Sequence record: KM606994
DNA from: Escherichia phage RB3
Length of the DNA stretch: 64,000 nucleotides
Direction: 5' to 3' (one strand)
Shown here one piece after another: positions 7,249 to 53,367 of the stretch. Numbering within the stretch: position 1 is the stretch's first letter; each line of letters starts with the position of its first letter. Position numbers and translations under genes: made by a program. Below the pieces are notes generated by a model. It was not told where the DNA came from. It did not search any database and was given only the letters and a program-made list of their open reading frames with translations.

Positions 7249-7719
7249 TTAATCATGTTTCCACACCCCATCGGTATTTGACCAAAGTCGCTGATTATCT
7301 GATCCTCGCCACAGCTTTTTAGTCGGAAGATTTTTCTCATACTTCCCATCAATAATAACATCAACATATTTAAGCATTTCTAGTTGTTTAATATCTTCAA
7401 ACTTATATCCTGTCCACAACCAAATGCTTTTATTGGGATAAAGATTTTTTACTGTTTGAACAATGCAATGAATAACATCTCGATTGTCAGGATAGAGAGG
7501 GTCTCCTCCGGTTATAGTCAATCCTTCTATATAATCATTATTCAAACATTCAATTAATTGTTCTAGTGTTTCACCAGTGAATGGAATACCATTTCTAGCA
7601 TTCCATGTTGATTTATTATAACACCCTTCGCATTTATGCAAACAACCTGTAACGAAAAGAACGACCCTGCATCCAGGGCCATTCACGAAGCAGCACGGGT
7701 ATATTCTGTCATAATTCAT
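7249..7719 (-). CDS. nrdG: Anaerobic ribonucleotide reductase activating protein (radical SAM)
   Basis: Cysteine cluster CxxxCxxC (GCLHKCEGC); start taken as the ATG at 7719, which forms an ATGA overlap with the upstream stop. Confidence 0.8.
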   Translation of the reverse strand: MNYDRIYPCCFVNGPGCRVVLFVTGCLHKCEGCYNKSTWNARNGIPFTGETLEQLIECLNNDYIEGLTITGGDPLYPDNRDVIHCIVQTVKNLYPNKSIWLWTGYKFEDIKQLEMLKYVDVIIDGKYEKNLPTKKLWRGSDNQRLWSNTDGVWKHD

Positions 7720-8546
7720 AATAATATCCAATTTTTCCAAGCTTCATCAGTAGAATTACAGCGTTTTAGTATAAGATGTCTAGAAACTTTTATGGCATTT
7801 GAGCACTTTTTAATTGAATCATATTTAATACCGTCAACTGAAACGGTTTTGCTAGTTGGAGAAATTTTTCCATACATTGGATTTTTTGAACCAACTTGAA
7901 GTCCTTTTAAAGCTTTTGAAAGCTTTTGTCTAGATTCCAATGACATGGGAGAATTCTTTTTACCTTCAATAATTCGCTTGCGATGAAGTTCGCGTTCTTC
8001 TTCACTCAAAGAATTGTAATATTTTTTAACACCGTTTGATATAGATAATTTATCTTTCTCAGACCGCTCTCCAGCTAATTTACTTCTAACATCTTTTCGC
8101 TTCATAGCTATGCTTACGGCTTTATTTAAATTTGCTTGATGCTCTGGCGTACGTTTATATTTCTTTAAAGCACGTGAAATAGCTATTTTAGTTTCTTCTG
8201 TTCTCTTTTTACCTTTATTTGCTAAACTATTTTTGCGGCGATGTTCAAGTGTCTGTTCATAGGCAGTTCCACCTTTTCCACCAGGTTTAATATTATATGT
8301 ATTTTCTTTTAGACAATACTCTTCGGTTACGAGTTCAGCTTCTTTATCATACATTTGTTTTTCATTATCAAAAACATGTAAAATTTCTTTATTAAAATTT
8401 TTTCTACCATATTTTAATAAAGCGGCACGAATCAATGTTCCTGACCCCATATAACCGTCATTTATGTTATCGGTGCTATGCGCACCGATATATTCCTTTG
8501 AATTAATTATATTTGTTATTTTATAAATTATATAATACCTATGCAT
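7716..8546 (-). CDS. GIY-YIG homing endonuclease, free-standing (seg-like)
   Basis: 276 aa; N-terminal YYIIYKITN...KEYIGAHS GIY-YIG module and basic C-terminal repeats; overlaps nrdD end by 8 nt and nrdG start by 4 nt. Confidence 0.8.
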   Translation of the reverse strand: MHRYYIIYKITNIINSKEYIGAHSTDNINDGYMGSGTLIRAALLKYGRKNFNKEILHVFDNEKQMYDKEAELVTEEYCLKENTYNIKPGGKGGTAYEQTLEHRRKNSLANKGKKRTEETKIAISRALKKYKRTPEHQANLNKAVSIAMKRKDVRSKLAGERSEKDKLSISNGVKKYYNSLSEEERELHRKRIIEGKKNSPMSLESRQKLSKALKGLQVGSKNPMYGKISPTSKTVSVDGIKYDSIKKCSNAIKVSRHLILKRCNSTDEAWKNWILL

Positions 8547-10356
8547 GTTTTACTCGTTTTACCATTTCTTTCATTTTACCTAAATTCCATGGGACAACGC
8601 TAGGAGTTCCAAGATATCCGCATGTTCTTCTTATTGTGTTCATCTTTTTGGGATCAGTTTCTCCACAAATAGAACAAACAAATCCGTTTTCAGTAGGAGT
8701 CATTTCATGGGTACTTCCGCATGTAAAACATTTATCTACTGGCATATTAACACCAAAATAATCTAAATGTTGTGCAGCATAATCCCATACGGCCTCAAGA
8801 CCCTTTAAGTTATTTTTCATATCAGGAAGTTCAACATAAGAAATGTGACCACCTGTCGCAATGAAATGATATGGCGCTTCACGAGAAATCTTTTCAAACG
8901 GAGTAATATTTTCTTCTACTGAAACATGGAAACTGTTAGTGTACCAACCTTTATCGGTAACATCTTTTACGCTTCCATATTTTTCTGTATCGAGTTTACA
9001 GAAGCGATAACAAAGGTTTTCAGCAGGAGTCGAATATAAACTAAAAGCAAATCCAGTTCTTTCAGTCCACTGTTTAAGATGAGCATTCATTTTAGTTAAA
9101 ATTTCCTGTCCAATATCACGACCGACAAGAATATTCAATTCATGAATACCAATGTATCCTAGGGACACTGAACTTCTACCGTTTTTAAATAACTCAATTA
9201 TGTCGTCATCAGGTTTAAGACGAACCCCGAATGCACCTTCTTGGTAAAGAATAGGAGCAACAGTAGCTTTAACTCCTTTTAAGGAACTAATTCTACACAT
9301 CAAGGCTTCAAAACACAGGTCCATTCGCTCATCAAACAATTCAGTAAATTTCTGTTCATTGAACTGTGTTCCAATATAAGAATCTAACGCGATGCGAGGA
9401 AGATTCAGTGTTACAACACCAAGATTATTACGTCCATCAAGAATTTCATTACCAGTCGAATCTTTCCATACGCTCAAGAAACTACGGCAACCCATTGGAG
9501 AAACAGGAACAGATGAACCAGTGATAGCTTTATTGTTCTTAGCTGAAATAATATCAGGATACATCCTTTTGCTTGCACACTCTAGAGCAAGCTGCTTAAT
9601 ATCATAGTTCGGATCGTCTTTGTAAAGATTAACGCCTTCTTCGACGAACATAACAAGCTTAGGAAAAATAGGAGTTATCCCATCACGACCGAGACCTTTA
9701 ATACGATTTTTCAGAATTGCTTTCTGAATCATTCGTTCAGTCCAGTCAGTTCCCGTACCAAATGTAATTGTTACAAAAGGAGTTTGTCCGTTTGAACTAA
9801 AGAGAGTATTTACTTCATATTCATAAGCTTGGAATGCATCGTATACGTCTTTTTCTGTTTTAGATTGAGCATAATTCAACGCATCGGCGATTTGCCATTT
9901 TTCTGCATCCTCAATATGTTTTGCATAGGTGCGTTTAACATAAGGAGAAAGTACTTTATCTACATTAGCAAAAGTCGTTCCGCCATATTGGTGAGAAGCA
10001 ACCTGTGCAGTAATTTGTGCCATAATTGCAGTAGCAACACCGATTGATTTAGGAGTTTCAATCTGCGCATTACCAAGCTTAAATCCGTTCTCAAGCATTC
10101 CTTTTAAATCTACTAAACAGCAATTAGTAAATGGAAGAGCAGGGGAATAATCAATATCATGGAAATGGATAATTCCGCTTTCATGCGCTTTCATAATAAA
10201 AGACGGGACCATATTTTTGGCAATGTGTTTAGACACAATACCAGCCATAAGGTCCCGTTGAGTTGGAAAAACACGAGAATCTTTATTAGCATTCTCGTTT
10301 AAAAGGTCTTTATTAGTTTTATGAATCAATCCTTCAATTTCTTTTTCAATTGTCAT
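8539..10356 (-). CDS. nrdD: Anaerobic ribonucleoside-triphosphate reductase
   Basis: 605 aa in one continuous ORF; C-terminal glycyl-radical motif RRTCGYLG and a Zn-ribbon cysteine set. Confidence 0.9.
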   Translation of the reverse strand: MTIEKEIEGLIHKTNKDLLNENANKDSRVFPTQRDLMAGIVSKHIAKNMVPSFIMKAHESGIIHFHDIDYSPALPFTNCCLVDLKGMLENGFKLGNAQIETPKSIGVATAIMAQITAQVASHQYGGTTFANVDKVLSPYVKRTYAKHIEDAEKWQIADALNYAQSKTEKDVYDAFQAYEYEVNTLFSSNGQTPFVTITFGTGTDWTERMIQKAILKNRIKGLGRDGITPIFPKLVMFVEEGVNLYKDDPNYDIKQLALECASKRMYPDIISAKNNKAITGSSVPVSPMGCRSFLSVWKDSTGNEILDGRNNLGVVTLNLPRIALDSYIGTQFNEQKFTELFDERMDLCFEALMCRISSLKGVKATVAPILYQEGAFGVRLKPDDDIIELFKNGRSSVSLGYIGIHELNILVGRDIGQEILTKMNAHLKQWTERTGFAFSLYSTPAENLCYRFCKLDTEKYGSVKDVTDKGWYTNSFHVSVEENITPFEKISREAPYHFIATGGHISYVELPDMKNNLKGLEAVWDYAAQHLDYFGVNMPVDKCFTCGSTHEMTPTENGFVCSICGETDPKKMNTIRRTCGYLGTPSVVPWNLGKMKEMVKRVKHA

Positions 10357-10826
10357 TTTAAACTCTTTCTAAGCTGCTTCTTAAATGAAGCTATTAACTG
10401 TGTTTTGGTGTCAGATTCATTATATTCAAATCCTCTTTGAAGCATCTCGGCCATCATTTCCTCTTTTCCTAAACGAGAAAATTCCTTTGATTTATCTCCA
10501 ACAAAGTTAGGGTGAATATTATTTTGGGTGTAATCGGATTTTAAATAAGTAAGTAAATTTTCTAACCATTCAAGATAATCAACACCTTGTCCCTTTAAGC
10601 CAGAACGATTAAATTTATGCTTCATTTGACCTTCTGCGGCATTGCAGAGATTACAAAGCAATCCACGCACCTTTCCTGCTTTTGGTCCATTTAATTCATG
10701 GTCATGGTCGAGGTGATTAGCTTGAACATCAGGATTTAGTTCTCGTTGGCAAATTAAGCATTTACCGTTTTGTGCATTATAAAATTTTTGTTTTTCTTCT
10801 TTGTATAATTTGCCAGTCAATAACAT
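10353..10826 (-). CDS. 49: Endonuclease VII (Holliday junction resolvase)
   Basis: 157 aa; sequence (MLLTGKLYKEEKQKFY...CLICQREL...HLDHDHE) matches my memory of T4 gp49. Confidence 0.9.
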   Translation of the reverse strand: MLLTGKLYKEEKQKFYNAQNGKCLICQRELNPDVQANHLDHDHELNGPKAGKVRGLLCNLCNAAEGQMKHKFNRSGLKGQGVDYLEWLENLLTYLKSDYTQNNIHPNFVGDKSKEFSRLGKEEMMAEMLQRGFEYNESDTKTQLIASFKKQLRKSLK

Positions 10827-10867
10827 AATAAACCCTTACCTTAAATAGATAAGGGTATTTATTATTT

Positions 10868-11371
10868 TCAAGTATTGTAAAACATTTGATTCAATCGCTT
10901 ATATTGCCGAATCTTTTGGTCAGAAAAAGAAATTTGGGTTTCAAGCCATTCAATATATTCTGCCGCAGCTTGCATCAAATTTCCTTCATAGCCATCGTTA
11001 TTTTCTTGTGCAGCTAATTTAGCTAATGCGTATGAAATACGTTCACCTTGAAAATCAGCTTTAGGCTTCTGAACAACTTGATTAGTTCTCTCTACAACTT
11101 CTTCAATTTCGCCATTTTCTACTGATTCAGTATTCCACAAGCACCAATACGTAATTGGCTTATCGTAGATGTTAATAATCTTTCCATCAGAAAGTTCAAT
11201 TTCAATAATTCCAGTGTCAGGCTCTATATCATCTTCACATTCTTTTGCGAGTTCACGAACTTTAAAGACAGTACCTGCACTAAGTTCCGGCCAGTAATTA
11301 CACAGCCCTGTATCAGCACGATTAATTCTAAACCACTTATCTACTGTAATCATGTCCCATCTCCATATCAA
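10868..11371 (-). CDS. Hypothetical protein at the pin position (possible protease-inhibitor homologue)
   Basis: 167-aa ORF between 49 and nrdC; assignment by synteny only. Confidence 0.4.
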   Translation of the reverse strand: MIWRWDMITVDKWFRINRADTGLCNYWPELSAGTVFKVRELAKECEDDIEPDTGIIEIELSDGKIINIYDKPITYWCLWNTESVENGEIEEVVERTNQVVQKPKADFQGERISYALAKLAAQENNDGYEGNLMQAAAEYIEWLETQISFSDQKIRQYKRLNQMFYNT

Positions 11372-11476
11372 TTAAGTCATTTATCGTTGGTTCATTATAT
11401 ACTGTTTCTTCATCAGTGTAAACCGGTTCTTCCGGCTCTGGCTCTACAGTTTCCCATCTAGCCGCCCACCAAGGTT

Positions 11477-11797
11477 TTATAGCGTAATCCATTCTCGTAC
11501 TGTCTGAGTTACTACACGTTCATGGGGCTCGACTAGTTCAACAGTCGGAACTGCATAATACCAGTCAGAATGATAAGAACCTGACCGAGATTCATTTACA
11601 GCCACATGTACATTATGTTTTGGACTAAAGTAAACACACTGACGATATTGACATTTACCATCTTGCACCCAGTCTTCTATTTCGACAGGTTTAAGATAAT
11701 CGGAAAAATCGAAATCATAGTTTTCCGAAAATGCATCATGGTCTTCAATGATTTCGCTCAGAACTGCATCAACATCTAATTTATTTTCAATAGTCAT
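11477..11797 (-). CDS. Hypothetical acidic protein
   Basis: 106-aa ORF. Confidence 0.5.
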   Translation of the reverse strand: MTIENKLDVDAVLSEIIEDHDAFSENYDFDFSDYLKPVEIEDWVQDGKCQYRQCVYFSPKHNVHVAVNESRSGSYHSDWYYAVPTVELVEPHERVVTQTVREWITL

Positions 11798-11981
11798 TTT
11801 TTCACCAATTAATTTCGCAATTTATTAAGTTCTTCATCATCAATCCAGGATTCTAGTCCTGATGGCAGGGCACATTCAATTTCCCAAAGAAGTTCTTCAA
11901 TTTTCTGAAGACGATCTAGTTCTTCGGCTGGAATAGTAACCATTGACGGAGCTCGTGATACATTAATATCGTAAATCATAT

Positions 11982-12197
11982 TTACCCCAATTTAACCATA
12001 CAATCGCCGTATTTCCACTTAGAAATAGACTTTTCACCATTAGAATAATAAACTTCGAGTTTAGCACGATTATTTTTAATTTGAATAACCTTGGCTGTCA
12101 TCAAAGTTCCATACCCATAATAAACTGCAACTTCATCACCTACATATACCGCGCTTCCGCGGTAATCATGAATATAGTCAGTTCCTTCGAGCATCAT
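11982..12197 (-). CDS. Hypothetical protein
   Basis: 71-aa ORF; start overlaps the nrdC stop. Confidence 0.45.
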   Translation of the reverse strand: MMLEGTDYIHDYRGSAVYVGDEVAVYYGYGTLMTAKVIQIKNNRAKLEVYYSNGEKSISKWKYGDCMVKLG

Positions 12198-12457
12198 TTA
12201 AAATATTCTCGCAGTTGGTCAAATCCACCAATATGACTTCCATCAGGAGCAAATACCTGGGGCATTGTCAAGCCGATTTGAGTATCACGACCTAGTTTAG
12301 TCAGAAGCTCAGCGATTTTCTCATCATCAAAAACACCTTTTTCCGGCATAATGTTGATAAATTCAAACGGCTGTTTCTTCACGGTCAAAAGACGTTTTGC
12401 ATTATCGCAATACACACATTTATGAATGTTGCTATCATAACCATATACTTTAAACAT
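12194..12457 (-). CDS. nrdC: Thioredoxin/glutaredoxin
   Basis: 87 aa with a CVYC redox motif; matches my memory of T4 NrdC. Confidence 0.85.
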   Translation of the reverse strand: MFKVYGYDSNIHKCVYCDNAKRLLTVKKQPFEFINIMPEKGVFDDEKIAELLTKLGRDTQIGLTMPQVFAPDGSHIGGFDQLREYFK

Positions 12458-12458
12458 A

Positions 12459-12701
12459 TTATTCCTTAATTCCTAGTACTTGTTTAAAAGTCTCGTCGTA
12501 ATCAAGACTTTGGCCCGTTTGTTCTTTATGTTTGTATATAATATCACTTACTTCTGATAGCATATTTTTATATGAACGAGTTAAAGCAGATTTAAGCACG
12601 CTGTATCTATCAGGAAATTTACCATGTTCATTATAATAAGCTATTGCTAATTCACGGACTGCCTTTTCAGCAGTCTCCATATATTCTTTACGCTTTGTCA
12701 T
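12459..12701 (-). CDS. Hypothetical protein
   Basis: ORF trimmed to the internal Met ([13 protein letters not shown]...); the longer N-terminal reading overlaps the next gene. Confidence 0.45.
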
Positions 12702-13002
12702 TTTCTTCTCGGTCAAATCGGTGTTTACAATGGCGACATTTATAACGAAGATTATTAGTCTGCCAATGGACCAATTGCACCTGTTCAGTTCCACATTCAG
12801 GGCAATTAGGAACGTTTTTAGAAGCACGTTCGCGGCGTTCAACCATGACCATTACAGAATCCCAATTAATAGGGCTGCTGTAATCATCACAACCATGAAT
12901 CTTTCCACGCATTTCTAGATCGTCTTCTTCACCAGCCATAATAATTTTAATTAGACTAGAATTACTTGAAGCTGCAATGTCTTCTAATAGACGCTTTTTC
13001 AT
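12688..13002 (-). CDS. Zn-ribbon protein
   Basis: 104 aa with CPECG...CRHC cysteine pairs. Confidence 0.5.
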
Positions 13003-13928
13003 TTCAATACCTCAATAGCATTACGTAAACCATTTGCTTTTGCATTAAGAGCTTTTAACAATTTGGTGTGTTCTGCAATTTGGGCTTCAACTTCAGTCAA
13101 ACGGGCATTGAGATATTCACGTTCTTCACTCAGATTATCAACCTTTTCTACTTTAGGCTCTTTTACAACTGTCTTATATGTATTAGGGTTCTTCAGTTTA
13201 ATTAGAATGCGTGAACTGTATAACATTGAACCATTATCTTCGGTTTCGTCATACATTTCCACTACGTCCATAATTTTTAACATCATGCGGAGTTTATAAG
13301 ACAACGAACGAATAGTTTTGTTGTGCTTATTAATTTCTTTAGCTGTCATGGTGCCAAGATTACGTGAGTAATAATAAGGAACCTGGATATTAATTAATAC
13401 TGATGAACCACCTGGCTTGTGTGTTACTTCATCAGCAATAACCCAGTCCTTAACATGAACTGTATTTGTACGGTCATCGCCTGCAGTAAACAGCTTGCGA
13501 GCATGCTTAAAAAGCATATTCACTTGGTCATTGAATTGACAAGCAAATTTATCAGCAAATTTAGTTTCAGGAATGGTAGATAACCAATCAGCCAAATGGG
13601 TCTTTTTAACATCGTTAACAATAGTAAATTGAACCAAATCGGTTATAGATGTCGCAGATTTAATGAAGCTCGGCTTCATAAAGTTTTTAATGTTATCACG
13701 AGCTACAGTAGAAGATAACATACGAGAACGTTTAAACCATTCAAGCAAATTGCCTAACGAATGAGAATAAGCGTTTTGAGTATCTTTACAGATATGATTT
13801 TCCTGACCAACATATTGAAGGAAATCACGAAGAATATTATTGATTACTGCTCTGTGCCCGATCTGATAATTACGGTGTTTAGTAATAAGACTATCAAAAT
13901 AATCAATATAATGTTTACGAGTTTTCAT
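12999..13928 (-). CDS. Paralog family member A: globular domain plus C-terminal coiled coil
   Basis: 309 aa; shares the motif L..K(I/Y)MDVV with the next three genes; C-terminal heptad-like tail. Confidence 0.6.
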   Translation of the reverse strand: MKTRKHYIDYFDSLITKHRNYQIGHRAVINNILRDFLQYVGQENHICKDTQNAYSHSLGNLLEWFKRSRMLSSTVARDNIKNFMKPSFIKSATSITDLVQFTIVNDVKKTHLADWLSTIPETKFADKFACQFNDQVNMLFKHARKLFTAGDDRTNTVHVKDWVIADEVTHKPGGSSVLINIQVPYYYSRNLGTMTAKEINKHNKTIRSLSYKLRMMLKIMDVVEMYDETEDNGSMLYSSRILIKLKNPNTYKTVVKEPKVEKVDNLSEEREYLNARLTEVEAQIAEHTKLLKALNAKANGLRNAIEVLK

Positions 13929-13980
13929 GTTCTTCTCACTTGGTTAATGATTTATGCTCCGAGCCATCCTTGGCTTTAAA

Positions 13981-14982
13981 TTACTTAATTAACTGTAAAG
14001 CTTGTTCCAAACGATCAAGACGATTAACAGATTCTTCCCAAATCTTTTTAGCCTGCTCATATTCTTTCTGCGCTTTATTAGAAATTTCTAGAACTTCCTT
14101 ATAAGCTTTTTCTAGTGCAATAACTTCTGGACGAATTTCTATCGGTTCAGGTGAATCGTCAAGACATTCCATTAGTTCCTCAAGGGTAGTTTCTTCTTTA
14201 GGAGTATTCACAATTTCATCACATTTTTGTTGGTAAATTTCTTTATCAGTAGGTGAATAAGCACATTTCACTTCACGAAGGCTAATTACGAGTTTATATC
14301 CTTCCCAACCACCCATATTTTTGAAAGGATATGTATGAATACTTTTTACAGTTTCCATACAATCCAAAGCCGTCTCTAATTGACGAGTTATAGTGCTAGC
14401 AATTGAGAAAAATTTATTAATATTCTTTTGGTTAGCTTCTGGTGTAAAAAATTCGTAATTCACAAAAATAGCTACTTTATTTTTATCAAGCTCATATTCT
14501 TTTACGATAATCATATCAGAAGCCAAAGGATGAATTTGACGATAATCGCCATAACATAATTTAGAAGCTGATTTTAGAATTTGTCCTTTAAAAAGTCTGA
14601 AATTACTAATCCAACGACGAGTAAAAATATTCTTAGGGTCTTCTTTGATATTAAGATGATAAGAATTAACATCACCGAACCAATTGTATCCTATTACACC
14701 TTTAGTTCGTTTAATTTCTTTCCCAAAATTACCAAGAATATCCCGATTAACCAAATATGAAAGAAGACGAGACCCTTTAAAGATTATCTTAATATCATCT
14801 TTATCTACACGGCTAGAAATTTCACGAACTTCATGAATAAATTTACTGGAAGAAACAATACTTGCATCAATACTGCTGAGCCATTGATTGATAATAGAAA
14901 GAACAGCGTTCTGACTAGACATGGGTTTAACTTTATCATCAATAACGCTATTGAATGATTTGATATATTCGTTACGAGTCAT
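13981..14982 (-). CDS. Paralog family member B
   Basis: Start at internal Met (MTRNEY) because the first ATG lies inside the promoter; segment RWISNFRLFKGQILKSASKL resembles member C; coiled-coil tail. Confidence 0.6.
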   Translation of the reverse strand: MTRNEYIKSFNSVIDDKVKPMSSQNAVLSIINQWLSSIDASIVSSSKFIHEVREISSRVDKDDIKIIFKGSRLLSYLVNRDILGNFGKEIKRTKGVIGYNWFGDVNSYHLNIKEDPKNIFTRRWISNFRLFKGQILKSASKLCYGDYRQIHPLASDMIIVKEYELDKNKVAIFVNYEFFTPEANQKNINKFFSIASTITRQLETALDCMETVKSIHTYPFKNMGGWEGYKLVISLREVKCAYSPTDKEIYQQKCDEIVNTPKEETTLEELMECLDDSPEPIEIRPEVIALEKAYKEVLEISNKAQKEYEQAKKIWEESVNRLDRLEQALQLIK

Positions 14983-15010
14983 AATAATCTCCTCAGTAGA
15001 AAGTAAGAAC

Positions 15011-15040
15011 ATTATACCACATCCTTGTGGTAAAGTAAAC
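15011..15040 (-). promoter_or_regulatory. T4-type early promoter
   Basis: Minus strand reads GTTTAC-spacer-TGGTATAAT. Confidence 0.6.
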
Positions 15041-16062
15041 TAGTTCAGTGCATTTAGTGCATTGCTCAGTTTAGAACGTTGCTTCGTGAGATTTTTGACT
15101 TTTTCTTGTGCTTTTTCTAGCATCTTTTCAGCTTCTAACACTTCATTAGTTGCTTTAACGAGTTCATCATCTACTGCCTTGATAGACTTCTCAATCGCAT
15201 CCGCGTGCCATTTTTCAACAGGTTTAAGACTCGGATTTTCAACAGGAAGAAAATTCACTTTATTGAATTTCCATGCATCTTTATTACCTGAGCTATACAT
15301 CCAAAATTTAGGATCGTTTGATAAGTAATTGGATAAATTTAAGTTATCTTGCACTTCCTGCTTTTTCTCTTGCGGGACTTCGTCCTTTCTCAAAAAATCG
15401 TATTTAAATGAAACGATCATATCAAGTTCATATGTTGTTGTATGTTCCCAATTTCGCTCAAAACGAGGTAAAATCTTAGATTGAACAGCAGCAACAACAT
15501 CCATATACTTAAATGCTTCTGTCAACTGCGATTTAAGGCATTCACAAATTGAAAGAGAATTTTTTGTATTAGGTTTAAAGCTAATTCGCGCAGTTCTATT
15601 ATTTTCTTTTAATGGTCTTACTTCCATCTGAAGAGTATAACCATCAAATTTCAGGTTCTTTAAGTTAATATCAGAGCCTTTTAATCGACTAGCAGTAGAC
15701 AAAATTTGCTTTAATTGTTTACGGAATAGAGCAATAAATCTCCATTCAATACGATAATGATTTGGATTGAAAAATCCAGATGATAAATCGACCTTACTTT
15801 GACCAACGCCTTGAACAATCAAAGGATTTTTATAATCAATAGTTTTACAGAAATCGGTGAGCTGTTCACGAGCAGTCATTTGTGTAATATACCCTGCTTT
15901 ACTAAAATTACGCACCCATTCACTGCTATTCGTATACTTAAAGTGATGAATAACACGATTAACTTTATCAGGGTCTAAATTATTTTCACACAAAAATGTC
16001 ATAACATCACGAGTATAGCTGGCATTACGAACCATATCTTCAATTTGAGAACGAGTTTTCAT
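15040..16062 (-). CDS. Paralog family member C
   Basis: 340 aa; RFIALFRKQLKQILSTASRL and KYMDVVAAV motifs; C-terminal coiled coil. Confidence 0.6.
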   Translation of the reverse strand: MKTRSQIEDMVRNASYTRDVMTFLCENNLDPDKVNRVIHHFKYTNSSEWVRNFSKAGYITQMTAREQLTDFCKTIDYKNPLIVQGVGQSKVDLSSGFFNPNHYRIEWRFIALFRKQLKQILSTASRLKGSDINLKNLKFDGYTLQMEVRPLKENNRTARISFKPNTKNSLSICECLKSQLTEAFKYMDVVAAVQSKILPRFERNWEHTTTYELDMIVSFKYDFLRKDEVPQEKKQEVQDNLNLSNYLSNDPKFWMYSSGNKDAWKFNKVNFLPVENPSLKPVEKWHADAIEKSIKAVDDELVKATNEVLEAEKMLEKAQEKVKNLTKQRSKLSNALNALN

Positions 16063-16070
16063 GGTGTTCC

Positions 16071-16979
16071 TTAAGATTTAAGTAAATCAACAATTTTAAT
16101 TAACTTTTCACGCTCAGATTTAGCTTTACTACTCAGTCCAGATAGTCTGAAAATTTCATCATCATATTGCTGAATAGAAATATTCAGCTCTTCAATCTGC
16201 TTATTAAAATAATCAATTTGTTCAGAATGTTTTTCGTTACTACGAACTGGTACAGGTTTTGTAGGTAATTTAGATGAACTGGATTCATCCGGGCGATAAA
16301 TTAAAATACAACTTGAACCAATTGGACATTTTGCACCAGATGAATATTCTAATGTTCCGGCTTCTTTTAAAACTTCAAAAGCTAAACAGAGATGATGCCC
16401 CATATTAACATAATCAGTAGAGCGAGCTCTGACGTAATAATCATCTCCACGAGTACTAAATTTAAAGCATTTAAGGTCTTCTGTATTATTGGTCTTAAAA
16501 ATCATTTGTTTATCTAGACCTTTAGCTAATCGAGCGCCTAATGCTAATAATCGTCGTTGATTTTCCCACAAATCCGCAATCATTTGATCGAATGATAATT
16601 TCGGCATTAGTCGACCATAAAGGTCATATCCTTTATTATAATTGCGAAGGATTTCACTCGCATTAATACGAGACAACGCTCCAATTTTATTAAGGGCTTT
16701 CATGATGCGATTAGATAAACCCATTCCAGACCCGTTTGTTCGTTGTAAATGTTTATCTAATCCAAACCCAATATCAACTTTAAATTTATCTAAAATTTCA
16801 GCATGAACATCTCTGTCAATAACATTCAAATCCAAAGTTGGGTTAAATCTATGAAAAAATTTATCTGGCTCTCCACGACGAAGTACAGTCCATTCATTCA
16901 ATTTTTTATTAACTAAAGATTTAATTACTGCATTGACATTATTAATTACTACTGACATATTTTCCTCACTCAATTTCAA
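16071..16979 (-). CDS. Paralog family member D (more divergent)
   Basis: 302 aa; weaker LCLAFEVLKEAG motif and a C-terminal coiled coil; start overlaps the upstream membrane-protein gene. Confidence 0.55.
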   Translation of the reverse strand: MKLSEENMSVVINNVNAVIKSLVNKKLNEWTVLRRGEPDKFFHRFNPTLDLNVIDRDVHAEILDKFKVDIGFGLDKHLQRTNGSGMGLSNRIMKALNKIGALSRINASEILRNYNKGYDLYGRLMPKLSFDQMIADLWENQRRLLALGARLAKGLDKQMIFKTNNTEDLKCFKFSTRGDDYYVRARSTDYVNMGHHLCLAFEVLKEAGTLEYSSGAKCPIGSSCILIYRPDESSSSKLPTKPVPVRSNEKHSEQIDYFNKQIEELNISIQQYDDEIFRLSGLSSKAKSEREKLIKIVDLLKS

Positions 16980-17373
16980 TTTTACTAAATACGCAGAATA
17001 TGATGGAAAAGACTATATAAGCACCGCATACAGATTGAACTAATACCATTCCAAAGAACCAAACAATATTATCAAACAATGTCTGTTTTACGTCGAAAGG
17101 ACGTAAACTTACAATAATATTATCACCTTTTTCTATTGAAGAATACATCTCTGGTGAAATATATTCGCTAAATCTATAACCGTCATTTAGTTCATATACG
17201 GCAATAAACGATAAACTAGACCCCTTTCCTTGAGTTCCTGTAAGGGTATTAACTACAGTAACATCATAATCTTTATAATGCATATAATCATTAATAGCAT
17301 AATAACCATATGCAACTACTACACATAAACAGCATATCAATAAATTCAATCTTTTAATTATCAACTGTTTCAT
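16966..17373 (-). CDS. Small membrane protein with two hydrophobic segments
   Basis: 135 aa; hydrophobic N- and C-terminal helices; translationally coupled to member D. Confidence 0.55.
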   Translation of the reverse strand: MKQLIIKRLNLLICCLCVVVAYGYYAINDYMHYKDYDVTVVNTLTGTQGKGSSLSFIAVYELNDGYRFSEYISPEMYSSIEKGDNIIVSLRPFDVKQTLFDNIVWFFGMVLVQSVCGAYIVFSIIFCVFSKIEIE

Positions 17374-17401
17374 AATAATCTCAATTAAAAGGGCTTAGAA
17401 C

Positions 17402-17440
17402 CATTATACCATCCTTGGTATAAAGCGGTTATGCGAGTAC
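17402..17440 (-). promoter_or_regulatory. Early promoter with a strong extended -10
   Basis: Minus strand TGGTATAAT with a weak -35. Confidence 0.4.
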
Positions 17441-17956
17441 CGTCTTTAACCGTTCTTCAAACTTCCGAAGAGTATTCTGGCGTTCAGCTCTTTGCTTTTT
17501 ATAAGTTTCAATACGCTCTGAAATGAGAGTGCATCGTTCATTTACTGATTCTTTCATAAAATCAGGAATTTCACGAGAAGCTTTAATCTCATCAAATTTA
17601 TCAATAACAGCTTGCTCTTCAGCAATTAAGTTATCATACATCAAAATATCTTTCTTGATGAACTCAATATCTTCTTGAGTTACACGAGATAACTTAGATG
17701 CTTTATCCTTTTTGTACTGTTCGTTAGTATCACGAGACCAATGTAATGTACGATTTTTATTCGTATTCTTGTAAATTTCTACGATACCAATCTCATCAAT
17801 AATAACGATCCAATTCCAACGGGATTTGTAAATTTGTCCTCCATCAACCGTGATTTCACCACCGATTGAGACATCATTAAAGAACTTGCTTTGAGCTTCA
17901 GATTTAAATTTACCATCGTTGTAATTTACCAGGTTGAAAATATCTTTAGCGTTCAT
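17429..17956 (-). CDS. Hypothetical protein with C-terminal coiled coil
   Basis: 175-aa ORF with its own promoter; C-terminal heptad-like tail. Confidence 0.55.
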   Translation of the reverse strand: MNAKDIFNLVNYNDGKFKSEAQSKFFNDVSIGGEITVDGGQIYKSRWNWIVIIDEIGIVEIYKNTNKNRTLHWSRDTNEQYKKDKASKLSRVTQEDIEFIKKDILMYDNLIAEEQAVIDKFDEIKASREIPDFMKESVNERCTLISERIETYKKQRAERQNTLRKFEERLKTVLA

Positions 17957-17969
17957 TTTGTGTTCCTCC

Positions 17970-18014
17970 GTAGTTGATAGTTGTATAGTACCACAGAGGA
18001 ACAGTCTTGTAAAC
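17970..18014 (-). promoter_or_regulatory. Early promoter cassette
   Basis: Minus strand GTTTACA-16 nt-TGGTACTATAC followed by the conserved box AACTATCAACTAC. Confidence 0.6.
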
Positions 18015-18016
18015 CA

Positions 18017-18331
18017 CTAAAAGAAACTTCTTTCACAATTTTTTCCACTGAACCATGCGCTCACTGCTTTCTTAGTCTCAGGAGCAGTGTTATCCATAAA
18101 CCATTCAAAGGCAGCCTTTTTATGATTCTGGAGGGCTTCTCGGGCTTTAATCTGCTCACGGTCTATTAACACTAACATATGAGCCTTTCTTGTCACCAGG
18201 GGCTTCTTATGATTTTTTGAATATTCCCAATCATTTGTCCATCGCATCGTTGTTGCGAACTGGAATACAGCTTCTTTAATCTTAGTTTCGTAAATTTCAC
18301 GAGCCTTTGAGTATAACATCATTACCTCCAT
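18017..18331 (-). CDS. Hypothetical protein
   Basis: 104-aa ORF. Confidence 0.5.
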   Translation of the reverse strand: MEVMMLYSKAREIYETKIKEAVFQFATTMRWTNDWEYSKNHKKPLVTRKAHMLVLIDREQIKAREALQNHKKAAFEWFMDNTAPETKKAVSAWFSGKNCERSFF

Positions 18332-18401
18332 TTACCAGTTTAATTCTAGTCATCTTTTTGATGACAGTCCATATAATCTATTTCTGAACTGCCTTTTTGT
18401 C

Positions 18402-19128
18402 TTAGGATTCTTCTAAATGTCTTTTCTGAAAAGTTGATACCATACTACGATACGGTTCATTTGGATACCCGTGTTTTATAGCTTCCTTTGTAAATTTTCT
18501 CCATCCATATTTAGTTTTTTTCCAAAGCTCGAATAATTCATCTTCATATTGCCATATAGTTAAATGAGAACGCTTTGCAGCTTTAATTCCATTAATATGC
18601 TTTTCTTTTACTACAGGATTGCTTAGTTTCTTTTTAATAATATTACTAACTTTTCTAACAAAAACTGGGTCCTTATATCGTTGCGAAGTTTTTATTGAAG
18701 TGTTTAATTTAGCTTCCGGCGTGGATGTAACCTCTTTCATCTTTTTCTTCATATGCTGTATATGATTAGGATTTTTCCATAAATTTATAGAATGCTTTTT
18801 GCATTTTATCCTAGTTTCATCTGCAACCTTTCCTCCTTCACCCCCCCCCCCCGTATGACAGGTTAACACAGTTTTTTCCATATTTCAATTTACCTGCCAT
18901 GATATATAATATTTCAGCTTGTACCATTTTATCATAATTATCAAAAACTTCTAAAACCGTTTTTGATAATATGTGGTCATTTGACACTTTTACACGTTCT
19001 ATATAATTTCCACTACCAACATACGAATCATTGATGTTATTAGTTATATGTCGACCATAATAGTATTTCTTAATACCTGTCTTTAAATTTAATATTTCAG
19101 TTTTATAGATAGTAAAATATTTTTTCAT
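18402..19128 (-). pseudogene. GIY-YIG homing endonuclease gene interrupted by a frameshift at a 12-nt homopolymer
   Basis: N-terminal ORF (18838-19128) has the GIY-YIG module YFTIYKT...KKYYYGRH and ends GGGG-stop; C-terminal ORF (18402-18881) has basic repeats; C12 run at 18841-18852 joins them. Confidence 0.65.
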
Positions 19129-20105
19129 TTTAATAATACCGTTTCAGCAATTTCTTCCCAATGGTTTTTGTCGGTCATAATAAAGTCAGCAAGATAAAGT
19201 GCAGTACGCAGTGAAACATTGCGTAAACGATTAACATTGACTTTCATCCATGATAATGCTTTATAAGTTTCTTCATCAGAAAGACCGCGCTTTTGCATCA
19301 TGTCAGTTGAAAGAATAACATCTTCAACCCTGACCATAATTTCTTCATTAGTGTGAACACCCAAATCCAAATAAACTGAGCGGGACACTAATGCTTGTAA
19401 GTGTGGGGCAAGTTTAGTACCACGGTCTAATTCGCGGTCAATGTCAACGTTTGTGATAAAAACAATCGTTCCTTTAAATTCAAACTCACGCTCAATGCCT
19501 TTTTCTTCTAAGTAAGAAGATGCAGTGCTCCAGCAGACTTTACGGGTCTCTCCAGTGTCCAGAGCAGCTTTTAGAAGATTAAGAATGTCCATATCAGAGA
19601 AAACATCCACATCATCAATCAAAAGGACAGAATTCTCTTCACGATTATTCCAAAGTTGTTCATAAAGACCGATACCGGAGATTTTACCGTTAATGCTTTT
19701 ATATTCAATGTATCCAATATCATTTGCTTTATTTAAAGCTTTATCTAAAGAATACGTTTTACCAATGCCTGCTGCTCCTGAGATAATTAATGAACGAATG
19801 TTTCCGTTAATAATACCATTCGTCATCATTCCCATAACATTAAATCTTTTATTAATGCGGGTTTTCATATCTTCATATGATTCTTTAACTTCTTCAACTT
19901 TTACGCCATCATATGAAATGTCTGATTTGTAAACCCAAACACCGCGACGCTTACCGTCAATTTCAACAAAAACTTTACCATCTCCTTGTGCATCTACCGG
20001 AGCATTATCTGGGAACCATTCGCCTAAGAGCTCAAAAGTTCCAGAGATTTCTTTACCAAAGTAGATACCCTTATTGATAGTTACAGTTTTCATTTTATTC
20101 TCCAA
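19125..20105 (-). CDS. AAA+/P-loop ATPase-like protein
   Basis: 326 aa; Walker A ISGAAGIGKT, Walker B VLLIDDVD, sensor-like FITN. Confidence 0.6.
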   Translation of the reverse strand: MENKMKTVTINKGIYFGKEISGTFELLGEWFPDNAPVDAQGDGKVFVEIDGKRRGVWVYKSDISYDGVKVEEVKESYEDMKTRINKRFNVMGMMTNGIINGNIRSLIISGAAGIGKTYSLDKALNKANDIGYIEYKSINGKISGIGLYEQLWNNREENSVLLIDDVDVFSDMDILNLLKAALDTGETRKVCWSTASSYLEEKGIEREFEFKGTIVFITNVDIDRELDRGTKLAPHLQALVSRSVYLDLGVHTNEEIMVRVEDVILSTDMMQKRGLSDEETYKALSWMKVNVNRLRNVSLRTALYLADFIMTDKNHWEEIAETVLLK

Positions 20106-20116
20106 ATCTGTATCAG

Positions 20117-20160
20117 TAGTTGATAGTTGTATAGTACCATAAAGCTTTATGCTTGTAAAC
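20117..20160 (-). promoter_or_regulatory. Early promoter cassette
   Basis: Same conserved sequence as 17970-18014 (tagttgatagttgtatagtacca ... gtaaac on plus strand). Confidence 0.6.
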
Positions 20161-20190
20161 CATTTTGTGAAAAATTTTTGAAATAAAAAA

Positions 20191-20208
20191 GGGAGCCCGA
20201 AGGCTCCC
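20191..20208 (-). terminator. UUCG hairpin plus U-run (intrinsic terminator / stability hairpin)
   Basis: Plus strand aaaaaagggagcccgaaggctccc; minus strand reads hairpin then UUUUUU. Confidence 0.6.
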
Positions 20209-20210
20209 TA

Positions 20211-21257
20211 TCATTTATAATAACTTCGATGGTTTTCGAGATACACCTTCTCAAGGAAGTCATCCCAGAAACCCATGTCCACTTTTTGCTGCATACCGTT
20301 CTTAGAAGCTTCAGTAGATGCTGCTTCTACTTGATCGACCACATCTTCCAAAAACTCTTGAACTGTTTTAAATGGATGCTTACCCAACTTCACGTCGAGA
20401 ATAAATGGAGCATCTTGGAGTGGATAAACCAAGTCACCAGTTTTGTAAATTTCCAATAGTTGGAGTCCACCACGACAAGCATGACTCAGAGCTTTCCAGT
20501 CAATGCCTTCATTGGCTTCGGCCTTACGAGCGCGTTCACCATATTCAGCATCTAATTTGTTCAGTGACTGCTTAAGCTCAATAAGAGAAAGAGTTGTCTG
20601 ATATTTACGACCCAACACAGTGTAGAACGTTTGTGGGCCTGTTTTCTCATGATTATGGAACACCCATTCACAGAATTCGTTTTCTGGAAGACGATGCTTA
20701 ATATCTTCAACTTTAGTGCGACGCTGCTTAATGGAACCGTCTTCTTGGTAATCAACCCATTGCTCAGGGATTTGATTAACTACTTTCAATACATCGCGTA
20801 ATGCAGCCAAACGAGAACCCTTGACACCGTATTTAGAAGCTTGCTTGCGAACATATCCTAAATAGGATTTCATGTTAGTCGTATAAAAACGAGAACGGTT
20901 GTCTTGAATAAACTTCCACACATCAGGCAAATCAGATTTAACTACTAGTTCAGGTGGAGTATGAAGCATATCTAATGCTACAGTTTCACCATCTGCTGCT
21001 AATTTAAAGAAATACTTAAGACTATACAATTCGTGGTCAATATCATCTTTAGTGTTTTTAGATGATGTATTGTTAGTGTTTTTACTCATATGCTCTTTAA
21101 CATTTCCGATAAGAATATCGCGAGCAGGAGGAACAAAGATTTCTTTAAAATCTACATCAGATTCTGGAGTAGAAGTTCCATAAAGATGACTACCAAAATA
21201 AGACTTAACTACAGTTTTCATTATTAGACCTTTCATAATCTTCATTAAATTGTACAA
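20211..21257 (-). CDS. Nucleotidyltransferase-fold protein (pol-beta superfamily-like)
   Basis: 348 aa; N-terminal GS-x-YG-x5-SDVDF signature; start may be the internal Met near 21221. Confidence 0.5.
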   Translation of the reverse strand: MYNLMKIMKGLIMKTVVKSYFGSHLYGTSTPESDVDFKEIFVPPARDILIGNVKEHMSKNTNNTSSKNTKDDIDHELYSLKYFFKLAADGETVALDMLHTPPELVVKSDLPDVWKFIQDNRSRFYTTNMKSYLGYVRKQASKYGVKGSRLAALRDVLKVVNQIPEQWVDYQEDGSIKQRRTKVEDIKHRLPENEFCEWVFHNHEKTGPQTFYTVLGRKYQTTLSLIELKQSLNKLDAEYGERARKAEANEGIDWKALSHACRGGLQLLEIYKTGDLVYPLQDAPFILDVKLGKHPFKTVQEFLEDVVDQVEAASTEASKNGMQQKVDMGFWDDFLEKVYLENHRSYYK

Positions 21258-21984
21258 TCAATCGATGATAATTAGATTTTGGATATCCTAATTTACTTAT
21301 ATAAGTTCCGAATGACCCACGTTTAGGTCTATTTAATTTAATCCATAACTTATAAAGTAAGTCATAGTCTTGCCAATGTTTACCAGTTCTTTGTCTAATT
21401 TTAGATGAATTTGATTGTTTCTTTTTAGTTTCAAAATTATTCAAAGATTTTTTGACTGCAGCAGAGTGTTTTTCTTTAACTCCCGGTCGTTTAAAAGCAG
21501 CTTTCACCCCTTTAGATATTTTTTCTTTAACTTCCGGTTTGTTTTGTGCTTCTAACTGGGATTCTGAAATTTTAGCCCTTATTTCAGGAAGACTTAATGT
21601 TATCGAACGTTTTTCTCTGTATTCATTAGACTTCCACATTTCTTTCATTGTATTAGAATGTATTTTTGAAAATTTTTCTCTAACTAACTGATATCCTCTT
21701 GAAGTTAATTTGAGATTTCTTCCTAAAGAATCTTCTCCAAAATTATAAAATGACCACCATGCATAAATTAATCCAGGCGAATTATAATGAATTTTAGCTA
21801 AAAGCCAATGGGCTATAAAATGCTCTCTAGCTGTTAATAAAACTAGATTATCAGAATCATCATTACCACCAATACAAGATGGAATAATATGATGCTTTTC
21901 CGTATAAAAATTTAATTTAGATTTATCTAATTTTCTGAGTTTTCCTTTCTTAATTAAATTATTATATACTTTAGTATAATTCAT
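21205..21984 (-). CDS. mobD: HNH homing endonuclease (mob-like)
   Basis: 259 aa; HNH motif EKHHIIPSCIGGNDDSDNLVLLTAREHFIAHW and a basic C-terminus; symbol by synteny. Confidence 0.65.
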   Translation of the reverse strand: MNYTKVYNNLIKKGKLRKLDKSKLNFYTEKHHIIPSCIGGNDDSDNLVLLTAREHFIAHWLLAKIHYNSPGLIYAWWSFYNFGEDSLGRNLKLTSRGYQLVREKFSKIHSNTMKEMWKSNEYREKRSITLSLPEIRAKISESQLEAQNKPEVKEKISKGVKAAFKRPGVKEKHSAAVKKSLNNFETKKKQSNSSKIRQRTGKHWQDYDLLYKLWIKLNRPKRGSFGTYISKLGYPKSNYHRLIVQFNEDYERSNNENCS

Positions 21985-22058
21985 TGGTTCTTCGTCTCAT
22001 TTAATTTTGCTTTGCATTTATAACACATGTCTGTTCCACTTGAAATAAACATATTTCC

Positions 22059-49634: not shown

Positions 49635-50631
49635 TTCAAGTGTTATCTATCGTGCGATAGTTACTTCAAAATTTAGAACAGAAAAAATGTTGAATTTTTA
49701 TAATTCAATTGGAAGTGGTCCGGATAAAAACACTATCTTTATCACATTTGGAAGATCAGAACCGTGGTCATCAAATGAAAATGAGGTGGGCTTTGCCCCA
49801 CCTTATCCAACCGATTCTGTATTAGGCGTAACTGACATGTGGACGCATATGATGGGAACCGTAAAGGTTCTTCCATCAATGCTTGATGCAGTTATTCCTC
49901 GTCGAGATTGGGGAGATACTAGATATCCGGATCCGTATACATTTAGAATTAACGATATTATAGTGTGTAACTCAGCTCCTTACAACGCTACTGAATCAGG
50001 CGCAGGCTGGTTAGTATATCGTTGTTTAGATGTTCCTGATACTGGAATGTGTTCAATCGCATCTTTAACTGATAAGGATGAATGCCTTAAATTAGGCGGA
50101 AAATGGACACCTTCTGTTAGGTCAATGACTCCTCCTGAAGGTCGAGGAGATGCTGAAGGAACAATTGAACCTGGGGACGGGTATGTATGGGAATATCTTT
50201 TTGAGATTCCGCCTGATGTATCTATAAATAGATGCACGAATGAATATATCGTGGTTCCTTGGCCTGAGGAATTAAAAGAAGACCCGACTAGATGGGGATA
50301 TGAAGATAATCTCACTTGGCAACAAGATGATTTTGGATTAATTTACCGGGTTAAGGCAAATACTATCCGTTTTAAAGCATATTTAGATTCAGTTTATTTT
50401 CCTGATGCTGCATTGCCAGGAAATAAAGGATTTAGACAAATATCAATAATCACGAATCCTCTTGAAGCTAAAGCTCATCCAAATGACCCAAACGTTAAAG
50501 CTGAAAAGGATTATTATGACCCAGAAGATTTAATGAGGCATTCGGGCGAAATGATTTATATGGAAAATAGGCCACCTATTATTATGGCAATGGATCAAAC
50601 AGAAGAAATCAATATTCTGTTTACATTTTAA
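49627..50631 (+). CDS. 8: Baseplate wedge protein gp8
   Basis: 334 aa. Confidence 0.9.
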   Translation: MNDSSVIYRAIVTSKFRTEKMLNFYNSIGSGPDKNTIFITFGRSEPWSSNENEVGFAPPYPTDSVLGVTDMWTHMMGTVKVLPSMLDAVIPRRDWGDTRYPDPYTFRINDIIVCNSAPYNATESGAGWLVYRCLDVPDTGMCSIASLTDKDECLKLGGKWTPSVRSMTPPEGRGDAEGTIEPGDGYVWEYLFEIPPDVSINRCTNEYIVVPWPEELKEDPTRWGYEDNLTWQQDDFGLIYRVKANTIRFKAYLDSVYFPDAALPGNKGFRQISIITNPLEAKAHPNDPNVKAEKDYYDPEDLMRHSGEMIYMENRPPIIMAMDQTEEINILFTF

Positions 50632-50636
50632 ATTAA

Positions 50637-50660
50637 GGGAGCCCATGGGCTCCCTTTTTT
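50637..50660 (+). terminator. Intrinsic terminator after gene 8
   Basis: Palindrome gggagcccatgggctccc followed by tttttt. Confidence 0.7.
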
Positions 50661-50663
50661 CTT

Positions 50664-50671
50664 TATAAATA
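50664..50671 (+). promoter_or_regulatory. Late promoter TATAAATA upstream of gene 9
   Basis: Exact tataaata 25 nt upstream of the gene 9 ATG. Confidence 0.65.
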
Positions 50672-50695
50672 TTATAAACTCATAAGGAAACCGCT

Positions 50696-51562
50696 ATGTT
50701 CATTCAAGAACCAAAGAAATTGATTGATACCGGCGAAATTGGTAACGCTTCTACTGGTGATATCTTATTCGACGGTGGTAATAAAATTAATAGTGATTTT
50801 AACGCAATTTATAATGCGTTTGGCGATCAGCGTAAAATGGCAGTAGCAAATGGCACTGGAGCAGATGGTCAAATTATCCATGCTACTGGGTATTATCAAA
50901 AACACTCTATTACAGAGTACGCAACTCCAGTGAAAGTTGGCACTAGACATGATATTGATACCTCTACTGTAGGTGTTAAAGTTATCATTGAAAGAGGCGA
51001 ACTTGGCGACTGTGTTGAATTTATTAACTCTAATGGATCAATATCAGTTACTAATCCTTTAACTATTCAAGCTATTGATTCAATTAAAGGCGTTTCAGGT
51101 AATTTAGTAGTAACTAGTCCATATAGTAAAGTTACTTTACGTTGTATTTCATCTGATAATTCTACGTCGGTTTGGAATTATTCTATTGAAAGTATGTTTG
51201 GCCAAAAGGAATCACCGGCCGAAGGTACATGGAATATTTCTACGTCTGGATCAGTTGACATTCCGCTATTTCATCGTACTGAATATAACATGGCTAAATT
51301 GTTAGTTACATGCCAATCAGTAGATGGAAGAAAAATTAAAACAGCAGAAATAAATATTCTTGTAGATACTGTTAATTCAGAGGTCATTTCTTCTGAATAT
51401 GCTGTCATGCGGGTTGGGAATGAAACCGAAGAAGACGAAATCGCTAATATTGCATTTAGTATTAAAACAAATTATGTAACGGCGACTATAAGTTCTTCAA
51501 CTGTCGGTATGAGAGCAGCAGTTAAAGTTATCGCTACGCAGAAAATCGGGGTGGCTCAATAA
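50696..51562 (+). CDS. 9: Baseplate protein gp9 (long tail fibre socket)
   Basis: 288 aa. Confidence 0.9.
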   Translation: MFIQEPKKLIDTGEIGNASTGDILFDGGNKINSDFNAIYNAFGDQRKMAVANGTGADGQIIHATGYYQKHSITEYATPVKVGTRHDIDTSTVGVKVIIERGELGDCVEFINSNGSISVTNPLTIQAIDSIKGVSGNLVVTSPYSKVTLRCISSDNSTSVWNYSIESMFGQKESPAEGTWNISTSGSVDIPLFHRTEYNMAKLLVTCQSVDGRKIKTAEINILVDTVNSEVISSEYAVMRVGNETEEDEIANIAFSIKTNYVTATISSSTVGMRAAVKVIATQKIGVAQ

Positions 51563-53367
51563 TGAAACAAAATATTAATATCGGTAATGTTGTTGATGAT
51601 GGTACCGGTGACTACCTGCGTAAAGGTGGTATAAAAATAAATGAAAACTTTGATGAGCTTTATTACGAGCTTGGTGATGGAGATGTTCCATATTCAGCCG
51701 GTGCCTGGAAAACTTATAATGCTTCATCTGGTCAAACATTAAAAGCTAAGTGGGGAAAATCATACGCTATTAATACCTCTTCTGGAAGAGTAACTTTACA
51801 ACTTCCTAAAGGAACTGTTAATGATTATAATAAAGTAATTAGAGCTAGGGATGTATTTGCAACATGGAACATTAATCCAGTTACTTTAGTAGCCGCTTCT
51901 GGTGATACTATCAAAGGATCATCGTCATCGGTTGAAATTAACGTTCAATTTAGTGATTTAGAGCTAGTTTATTGCGCTCCGGGCCGTTGGGAATATGTCA
52001 AAAATAAACAAATTGACAAAATTATTAGTTCAGACATTAGCAATGTAGCTCGTAAAGAATTTTTAGTCGAAGTTCAAGGACAAACAGACTTTTTAGATAT
52101 TTTCCGTGGAACTAGCTATAATGTTAATAACATCCGAGTAAAACATCGTGGTAACGAATTATATTACGGCGATGTATTTAGTGAAAACAGTGACTTTGGC
52201 TCTCCAGGGGAAAATGAAGGAGAACTAATTCCTCTCGATGGATTTAATATTAGGCTAAGACAGCCATGTAATATTGGTGACACTGTTCAAATTGAAACAT
52301 TTATGGATGGTGTATCACAATGGAGAAGTTCATATACAAGACGCCAAATAAAAGTACTAGATTCAAAACTAACATCAAAGACTTCATTAGAAGGAAGTAT
52401 TTACGTTACTGATTTATCGACGATGAAATCAATTCCATTTTCCGCTTTTGGATTAATTCCTGGTGAACCTATTAATCCTAACTCTCTTGAGGTTCGTTTT
52501 AATGGAATTTTACAGCAACAAGCTGGAACAGCTGGATATCCTCTGTTTTTGTGTGAAGGCGCTAGTTCAGATACGCAAGAAGGATGTATATCTCTTGGTG
52601 GTGAATGGAAAGAATCAAACACAGATTATTCTATAGAATATGAAGATGGAAAACCTACCAGTCTTTTATTTGATAGAAAATTTGAATCAGGCGATATAAT
52701 CGTTATAACGTGGTTCAATAATGATTTAGGAACTCTTTTAGAAAAAGATGACATTATTGAATTAACGGATGACCGTTATGTTAGCAAAGGATCATCTACC
52801 GAAGTTACTGGTGATGTAGCCTTAACGGATTTTGATAAAATCGGTTGGCCAAATGTTGAAAAAGTTGATTCTTATACTAGAACGTATAATTCAATATCAT
52901 CTATTTTCGATAGCATTTATCCTGTAGGTTCAATTTATGAAAATGCTATAAATCCAAATAATCCGGCGACTTATATGGGATTTGGTTCATGGAAATTATT
53001 TGGTAAAGGACAGGTTTTAGTAGGATGGAATGATGATGTTACGGATCCAAACTTTGCTTTAAACAATAATGATTTAGATTCTAGCGGAAATCCTTCACAT
53101 ACTGCCGGTGGAACAGTTGGAACAACAACAGTGACACTTGAGAATGCAAATCTTCCTGCGACTAAAACTGATGAAAGGGTTTTAATTGAAGATGAAAATG
53201 GATCAGTTATTATTGGAGGTTGTCAATATGACCCAGACGAAACTGGTCCTATATATACAAAATATCGTGAAGACTACGCAACAACAAACTCTTCACATAC
53301 TCCTCCTGCTAATATTAGTAATATTCAACCGTCTATTACTGTATACCGTTGGATAAGGATTGCATAA
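51562..53367 (+). CDS. 10: Baseplate wedge protein gp10
   Basis: 601 aa. Confidence 0.9.

Follow-up and report, generated by a model that had tools for sequence, protein, structure and literature searches.

A twelve-G homopolymer splits a predicted Seg-type GIY-YIG homing endonuclease gene of phage RB10, probably as a recent null allele

The closest described counterparts of the gene examined here are the SegA–G homing endonucleases of phage T4, which it resembles in its N-terminal GIY-YIG domain with the motif G-K/R-H-x-T...D-x-Y-x-GSG...E...N-x3-GG-x-GG, its basic helical C-terminal region, and its insertion between conserved genes at a site that is polymorphic among phages. It is, however, orthologous to none of the T4 seg genes and absent from T4. 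The td intron endonuclease I-TevI (catalytic domain 1LN0) shares 18% sequence identity with it, but I-TevI is intron-encoded, whereas the RB10 gene is free-standing, has a different C-terminal region, and encodes an activity that is only predicted here. The gene also recalls the degeneration cycle of homing endonucleases (invasion, fixation, decay, and loss), being present in a minority of related genomes and carrying several apparently independent inactivating frameshifts (G157lw, AR1, FL12, and RB3/RB10), although the RB10 lesion is a 7-nt homopolymer expansion and the usual lesion is ±1. Our literature search found no paper on this particular gene.

Homopolymers whose length sets the reading frame have been described in T-even phages. 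In T2, T4, and T6, ±1 frameshifts occur at ∼3e-4 per read in runs of at least 6 nt, and for an A9 run, reversion is ∼1000-fold faster than for a SNP (Gomez, Barrick, and Waters 2025, preprint, PMC12633550). The tract reported here is likewise coding and its length likewise determines the frame, but it is longer than the 6–9-nt contingency homopolymers studied there. At 12 nt within an ORF, it exceeds the ≥6 threshold used for T-even phages and is comparable to the polyG tracts of Campylobacter Fletchervirus phages (7–11 G cited). Unlike phage contingency loci, it comes with neither conservation nor a link to a selectable phenotype.

The window, by which we mean the whole 64-kb stretch of DNA that was analyzed, corresponds approximately to positions 32000–95999 of the record of Enterobacteria phage RB10 (KM606999.1, species Tequatrovirus RB3), and its region 18300–19250 is 100% identical to positions 50299–51249 of that record. 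The features discussed below are collected in Table 1. According to the initial annotation, the G12 tract sits exactly at the junction of two ORFs that read it as GGGG-stop and as TGGGGEGG, and the ORF listing confirms this: the 96-aa ORF ends in ...NLSYGGGG-stop, and a 159-aa ORF (18402–18881, −), in the +1 frame relative to it, overlaps the tract and reads it in the second way. The length of 159 aa is counted from an upstream ATG at 18881, to which the C-terminal ORF can be extended; in the RB10 record, the annotated product starts at an internal ATG and has only 112 aa. When tract length was varied in silico, 5, 8, 11, and 14 G yielded a single ORF of 239, 240, 241, and 242 aa, respectively, and every other length tried yielded truncated products. 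Fusion of the halves at 11 or 14 G into a protein of ∼240 aa had been anticipated and is reproduced; the ancestral length, however, is G5.

Table 1. Coordinates of the split endonuclease gene and its neighbors in the window
Feature	Position	Strand	Remarks
nrdC.9, downstream neighbor, DUF7203	18017..18319	−	start ∼80 nt downstream of the endonuclease stop codon
Entire frameshifted homing endonuclease gene	18402..19128	−	free-standing insert between nrdC.10 and nrdC.9
C-terminal part, +1 frame	18402..18840	−	residues 95–239 of the intact protein; basic, all-helical, putative DNA-binding region
N-terminal ORF, 96 aa + stop	18838..19128	−	complete GIY-YIG catalytic domain (Y8, Y23, G25, E72, N89)
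G12 homopolymer (C12 on + strand)	18841..18852	−	+7 insertion relative to G5; frame shifted +1
nrdC.10, upstream neighbor, P-loop NTPase-like	19125..20105	−	final codons unlike those of T4 at the boundary of the insert

A run of this length is as exceptional as it had first appeared. At 35% GC, the chance expectation for runs of ≥12 C or G is ∼1e-4 per 64 kb, elsewhere in the window G/C runs reach 6 nt and A/T runs 7 nt at most, and the same limit of 6 applies to G/C runs in the complete genome of the related phage RB68 (168 kb). A search of the window found no long C or G run nearby as a possible template for the insertion. Only one further G/C run in the window exceeds 5, a G6 at 55344–55349 (+) that the coordinate offset places in gene 12, for the short tail fibre; with a G6 at the corresponding position in RB7 and one in RB68 gene 12 as well, it counts as stable. 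Within the endonuclease gene, shortly downstream of the tract (18780–18800, −), TATAAATT agrees with the T4 late promoter consensus, TATAAATA, at 7/8 positions; this candidate promoter may be a chance occurrence in AT-rich DNA.

Both ORFs match the same profile, phrog_314 (homing endonuclease), at adjoining positions (175–268 and 264–423), and the fused protein matches it with an E-value of 5.5e-31. The halves are also joined as one 239-aa ORF in related G5 records, with separate 1-nt frameshifts in G157lw, AR1, and FL12. As contiguous parts of one PHROG profile and of one ORF in relatives, they thus represent a single GIY-YIG gene, as the initial annotation had proposed. Pfam and NCBIfam returned no usable match for either half or for the fused protein, even at E = 10, and the protein was not recognized in a PDB sequence search. 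An exhaustive HMMER search retrieved 1438 relatives, compared with only two from a word-indexed protein search.

We aligned the protein with 42 relatives, and among these 43 sequences, 18 have domain matches to PF19835 (SegE_GIY-YIG), 13 to PF01541 (GIY-YIG), and 16 to NUMOD3. Nine residues (Y8, G25, D34, Y36, G38, G40, E72, N89, and G93) are invariant in the alignment and four more (Y23, H27, G94, and G96) are nearly so. As for the conserved Arg of the GIY-YIG active site, K/R26-H27 directly follows the YxG motif in this family, a spacing unlike that of I-TevI. The GIY-YIG motif residues given in Table 1 all fall inside the RB10 96-aa ORF, and the N-terminal half has a GIY-YIG fold with a three-stranded sheet and helices, in agreement with its first assignment. 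The AlphaFold model, for which a near-identical alignment (A3) headed by a 99%-identical sequence (P0001) was used, has a mean pLDDT of 95, a β-β-α-β-α topology in the N-terminal domain, and an all-helical C-terminal region. Its confidence is lowest in the loop-like residues 91–100 (pLDDT 70). In the intact gene, the catalytic domain ends with the N-x3-GG-x-GG motif, whose conserved Gly93-Gly94 is specified by the G5 run. By sequence and model, the gene is predicted to be a Seg-type GIY-YIG homing endonuclease gene, and the frameshift separates a complete catalytic domain from the linker and the putative DNA-binding region.

Comparison of the fused protein with the seg family, suggested at the outset, gave a BLASTP match to T4 SegE (E-value 2e-9, 34% identity) that is confined to the catalytic domain (residues 11–117); the C-terminal part is unrelated. 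The protein is also similar to a SegD-like gene in the window (BLASTP E-value 2e-13, 31% identity; hhalign probability 99.2%). We rejected orthology with SegE, as the similarity is not full-length and the locus is nrdC.10/nrdC.9 rather than the inh/uvsW location of SegE. Judged by its sequence, the gene is a Seg-family paralogue and not SegE, and the label “segE”, which the RB68 and AR1 records carry on the basis of similarity, is misleading.

The endonuclease ATG overlaps the nrdC.10 stop codon (ATGA). The initial annotation had also raised the identity of the T4 gene in this slot. There is none: nrdC.9 and nrdC.10 are adjacent in T4, separated by a 94-nt spacer, and homology between T4 and RB10 breaks inside the last nrdC.10 codons and resumes at the stop codon of the endonuclease gene. 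Among 501 matching Tequatrovirus records, only 65 carry the gene, including T6, RB14, RB32, RB33, RB51, and RB68. By sequence comparison, this presence/absence pattern and the location are those of a homing endonuclease gene of the free-standing type.

The nrd region (∼7700–22000, −) harbors three genes for mobile endonucleases in ∼14 kb, namely a SegD-like gene and the G12-tract gene, both GIY-YIG, and the HNH gene mobD (record positions 53204–53983, ∼21205–21984 in the window). The SegD-like gene (7716–8546, −) lies downstream of nrdD, with its ATG overlapping the nrdD stop, and is an intact 276-aa ORF (MHRYYIIYKITN...EYIGAHST...). In RB5 and RB7, and by coordinate offset in RB10, it is annotated from an internal Met as 244 aa, which loses the GIY and YIG motifs. 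An N-terminal disruption of this neighboring segD was considered and rejected, the ORF being intact and only the annotated start wrong.

A 120-nt query centered on the tract matched 65 records, 60 of them listed. Among the 60 listed matches, all but RB10 span 113 nt rather than 120, with 112 nt in G157lw, which retains G5 and has a 1-nt deletion nearby. The five remaining matches of the 65 likewise have <99% identity, so RB10 is the only G12 record among the 65. G5 is found in the other 64, and RB10 therefore carries G5 + 7. RB5, for example, reads TAC GGG GGT GAA GGA GGA (Y-G-G-E-G-G) at the tract, with G5 and a single 239-aa ORF, and the one copy of the locus in IMG/VR also has G5. Predicted products of intermediate alleles (G4, G6–G11, and G13–G15) were absent among ∼15 billion public proteins. 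Two tract states have thus been seen, G5 in 64 records and G12 in RB10 and RB3.

Other length differences at the locus do not represent tract variation. The 943–945 nt differences among records trace to intergenic indels in SYGD1, FL08, and N2, and those of G157lw and AR1 to indels at other homopolymers inside the gene. The additional frameshifts (−1 in A6 at gene position 256 in G157lw, −1 in T5 at 458 in AR1, and +1 A at 416 in FL12) each fall at an A or T homopolymer and reflect either repeated decay or miscalls in the records.

Over the 64-kb window, RB10 and RB5 are separated by the 7 nt and one SNP (17392), and RB10 and RB7 by the 7 nt and two SNPs (14772 and 53662). Position 17392 (intergenic, nrdC.7/nrdC.8) is G in RB10 and RB7 and A in RB5; position 14772 (nrdC.4) is A in RB10 and G in RB7; and position 53662 (gp11) is A in RB10 and C in RB7. 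At this level of sequence divergence, the RB3-group isolates are effectively one phage. The sister phages RB5, RB6, RB7, and RB9, which lie one or two SNPs from RB10 over the 64 kb, have G5 and an intact gene. RB3, in turn, is annotated with exactly the same 96-aa ORF (AIT72832.1) and exactly the same tract-spanning 159-aa ORF (AIT72831.1). Because two identical ORFs overlap across the tract in different frames, they fix its length, and the RB3 tract would be G12 too. Database sources of the 96-aa ORF are limited to NCBI, UniRef, and NCBI nr, and it was found in no Logan or ENA read-run assembly.

We consider the most probable explanation to be a real and recent frameshift null allele of a free-standing Seg-type GIY-YIG gene, although this is favored by a modest margin over even chance and the loss of function would follow from domain architecture. 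The better supported part of it, that the allele is physically real, is likely. Real variation is favored over sequencing error because RB3, a separately sequenced stock, has identical ORFs and the RB68 control contains no long G/C run. Of the three readings offered initially (pseudogene, slippage-prone switch, and homopolymer sequencing error), a simple one-off error is disfavored by the identical allele in RB3, and a pseudogene is preferred to a switch while remaining unproven.

The stronger of the two rival explanations holds that RB10 and RB3 truly have a tract that keeps the frame (G5 or another such length), that the extra G residues were introduced during assembly or gap filling, and that the gene is intact. 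The genomes were sequenced on a MiSeq (2 × 250) to ∼2800× coverage, assembled de novo with Velvet, and completed in Geneious by filling gaps through iterative read mapping, a procedure that leaves room for such an error. Illumina coverage and length calls degrade in long G runs. Both G12 records come from one study, and the tract length depends on them as two consensus assemblies that a single laboratory made with a single pipeline. Tract lengths other than G5 and G12 are found nowhere, the RB10 genome exceeds that of RB5 by exactly 7 nt (record lengths: RB5/RB6, 168 394; RB7/RB9, 168 395; RB10, 168 401; RB3, 168 402), and a gain of 7 from G5 is an odd size, atypical of biological slippage, which counts against a real allele. 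Against an artefact, exactly the same G12 recurs in two separately prepared stocks and G5 in four with identical flanks from the same run and pipeline, coverage is high, the sequence is correct on both sides of the tract, so that molecules must span it, and RB68, a control genome from the same pipeline, lacks a long G/C run. On balance, we regard an artefact as unlikely, at about one chance in several.

Record lengths coincide across two phage groups (RB5/RB6 and RB51 at 168 394 bp, RB7/RB9 and Ac3 at 168 395 bp, and RB10 and RB68 at 168 401 bp). A second poly-G artefact of the same pipeline was considered as the source of the 7 nt by which RB68 exceeds RB51 and was rejected, the G/C runs of RB68 being ≤6.

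Under the favored null-allele reading, the G5 run encoding Gly93-Gly94 would have grown by 7 nt to G12 in the RB3/RB10 lineage. Translation would then stop right after the catalytic domain, giving a 96-aa product, and the linker and putative DNA-binding region (residues 95–239), for which no start signal is evident, would be left in the +1 frame. Since an isolated GIY-YIG catalytic domain would lack target binding, the allele is most likely null and homing probably abolished, which would place the gene in the degeneration phase of the invasion–decay cycle. Stepwise neutral drift to G12 is improbable, as few other mutations separate the sister phages. The locus is a new example of a well-known process, and its unusual element is the length of the homopolymer.

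Extrapolating from the shorter runs of the preprint (PMC12633550), G12 should be very unstable in replication. Such hypermutability by polymerase slippage would be incidental to the null allele: stocks would be expected to contain G11 (in frame, with two extra Gly) and G13 as by-products rather than as an evolved device. The second rival explanation is a functional switch, in which the tract would be either a contingency locus or a site of prfB-like +1 ribosomal frameshifting and would yield regulated or low-level 241-aa full-length endonuclease with two extra Gly. Its appeal lies in the restoration of one ORF by G11 or G14, in the homopolymer frameshift and A9 reversion rates reported for T2, T4, and T6 (PMC12633550), and in the location of the insertion in the loop-like, lowest-confidence part of the model (pLDDT 70), which may tolerate extra Gly. 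Read straight from the sequence, ...YGGGG-EGGK... would also result from a +1 shift at GGG-UGA. In the site, GGGGGG-GGG-GGG-UGA-A, an SD-like run of G lies upstream of a P-site GGG and an A-site UGA, and the frame is restored by +1, as in the prfB type, but re-pairing on GGU is imperfect and the site is not conserved, and the resemblance is formal only.

Several observations nevertheless speak against a functional switch. The tract occurs only in two near-identical laboratory stocks, with G5 in 64 other records, and the in-frame expanded allele is absent from the record. Among isolates, G5 and G12 were the only lengths seen, without ON/OFF variation; neither conservation of the tract, which is restricted to the RB3/RB10 stocks, nor a switching-linked phenotype was found; and we found no sign of selection for switching. 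Conservation of G93, G94, and G96 suggests that two additional Gly may impair the enzyme. A functional switch is accordingly improbable in our assessment, and an extreme T-even ON/OFF locus, which would imply a sizeable G11/G14 fraction in lysates with active 241/242-aa enzyme or a +1 shift at GGG-UGA, is equally doubtful. If the ON/OFF reading were true, homing would be stochastic and not constitutive.

For annotation, RB10_095 and RB10_096, and their RB3 equivalents, are better described as a single Seg-type endonuclease gene in two parts. If the tract is real, no homopolymer in this phage group would be longer than this G12 in glucosyl-hmC DNA, and it would be a convenient natural reporter of slippage rates of the T4-type replisome. 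RB5, RB6, RB7, and RB9 are effectively isogenic controls with an intact gene for measuring nrdC.9–nrdC.10 marker exclusion against T4, and the null allele that we favor would provide a clean, datable case of homing endonuclease decay.
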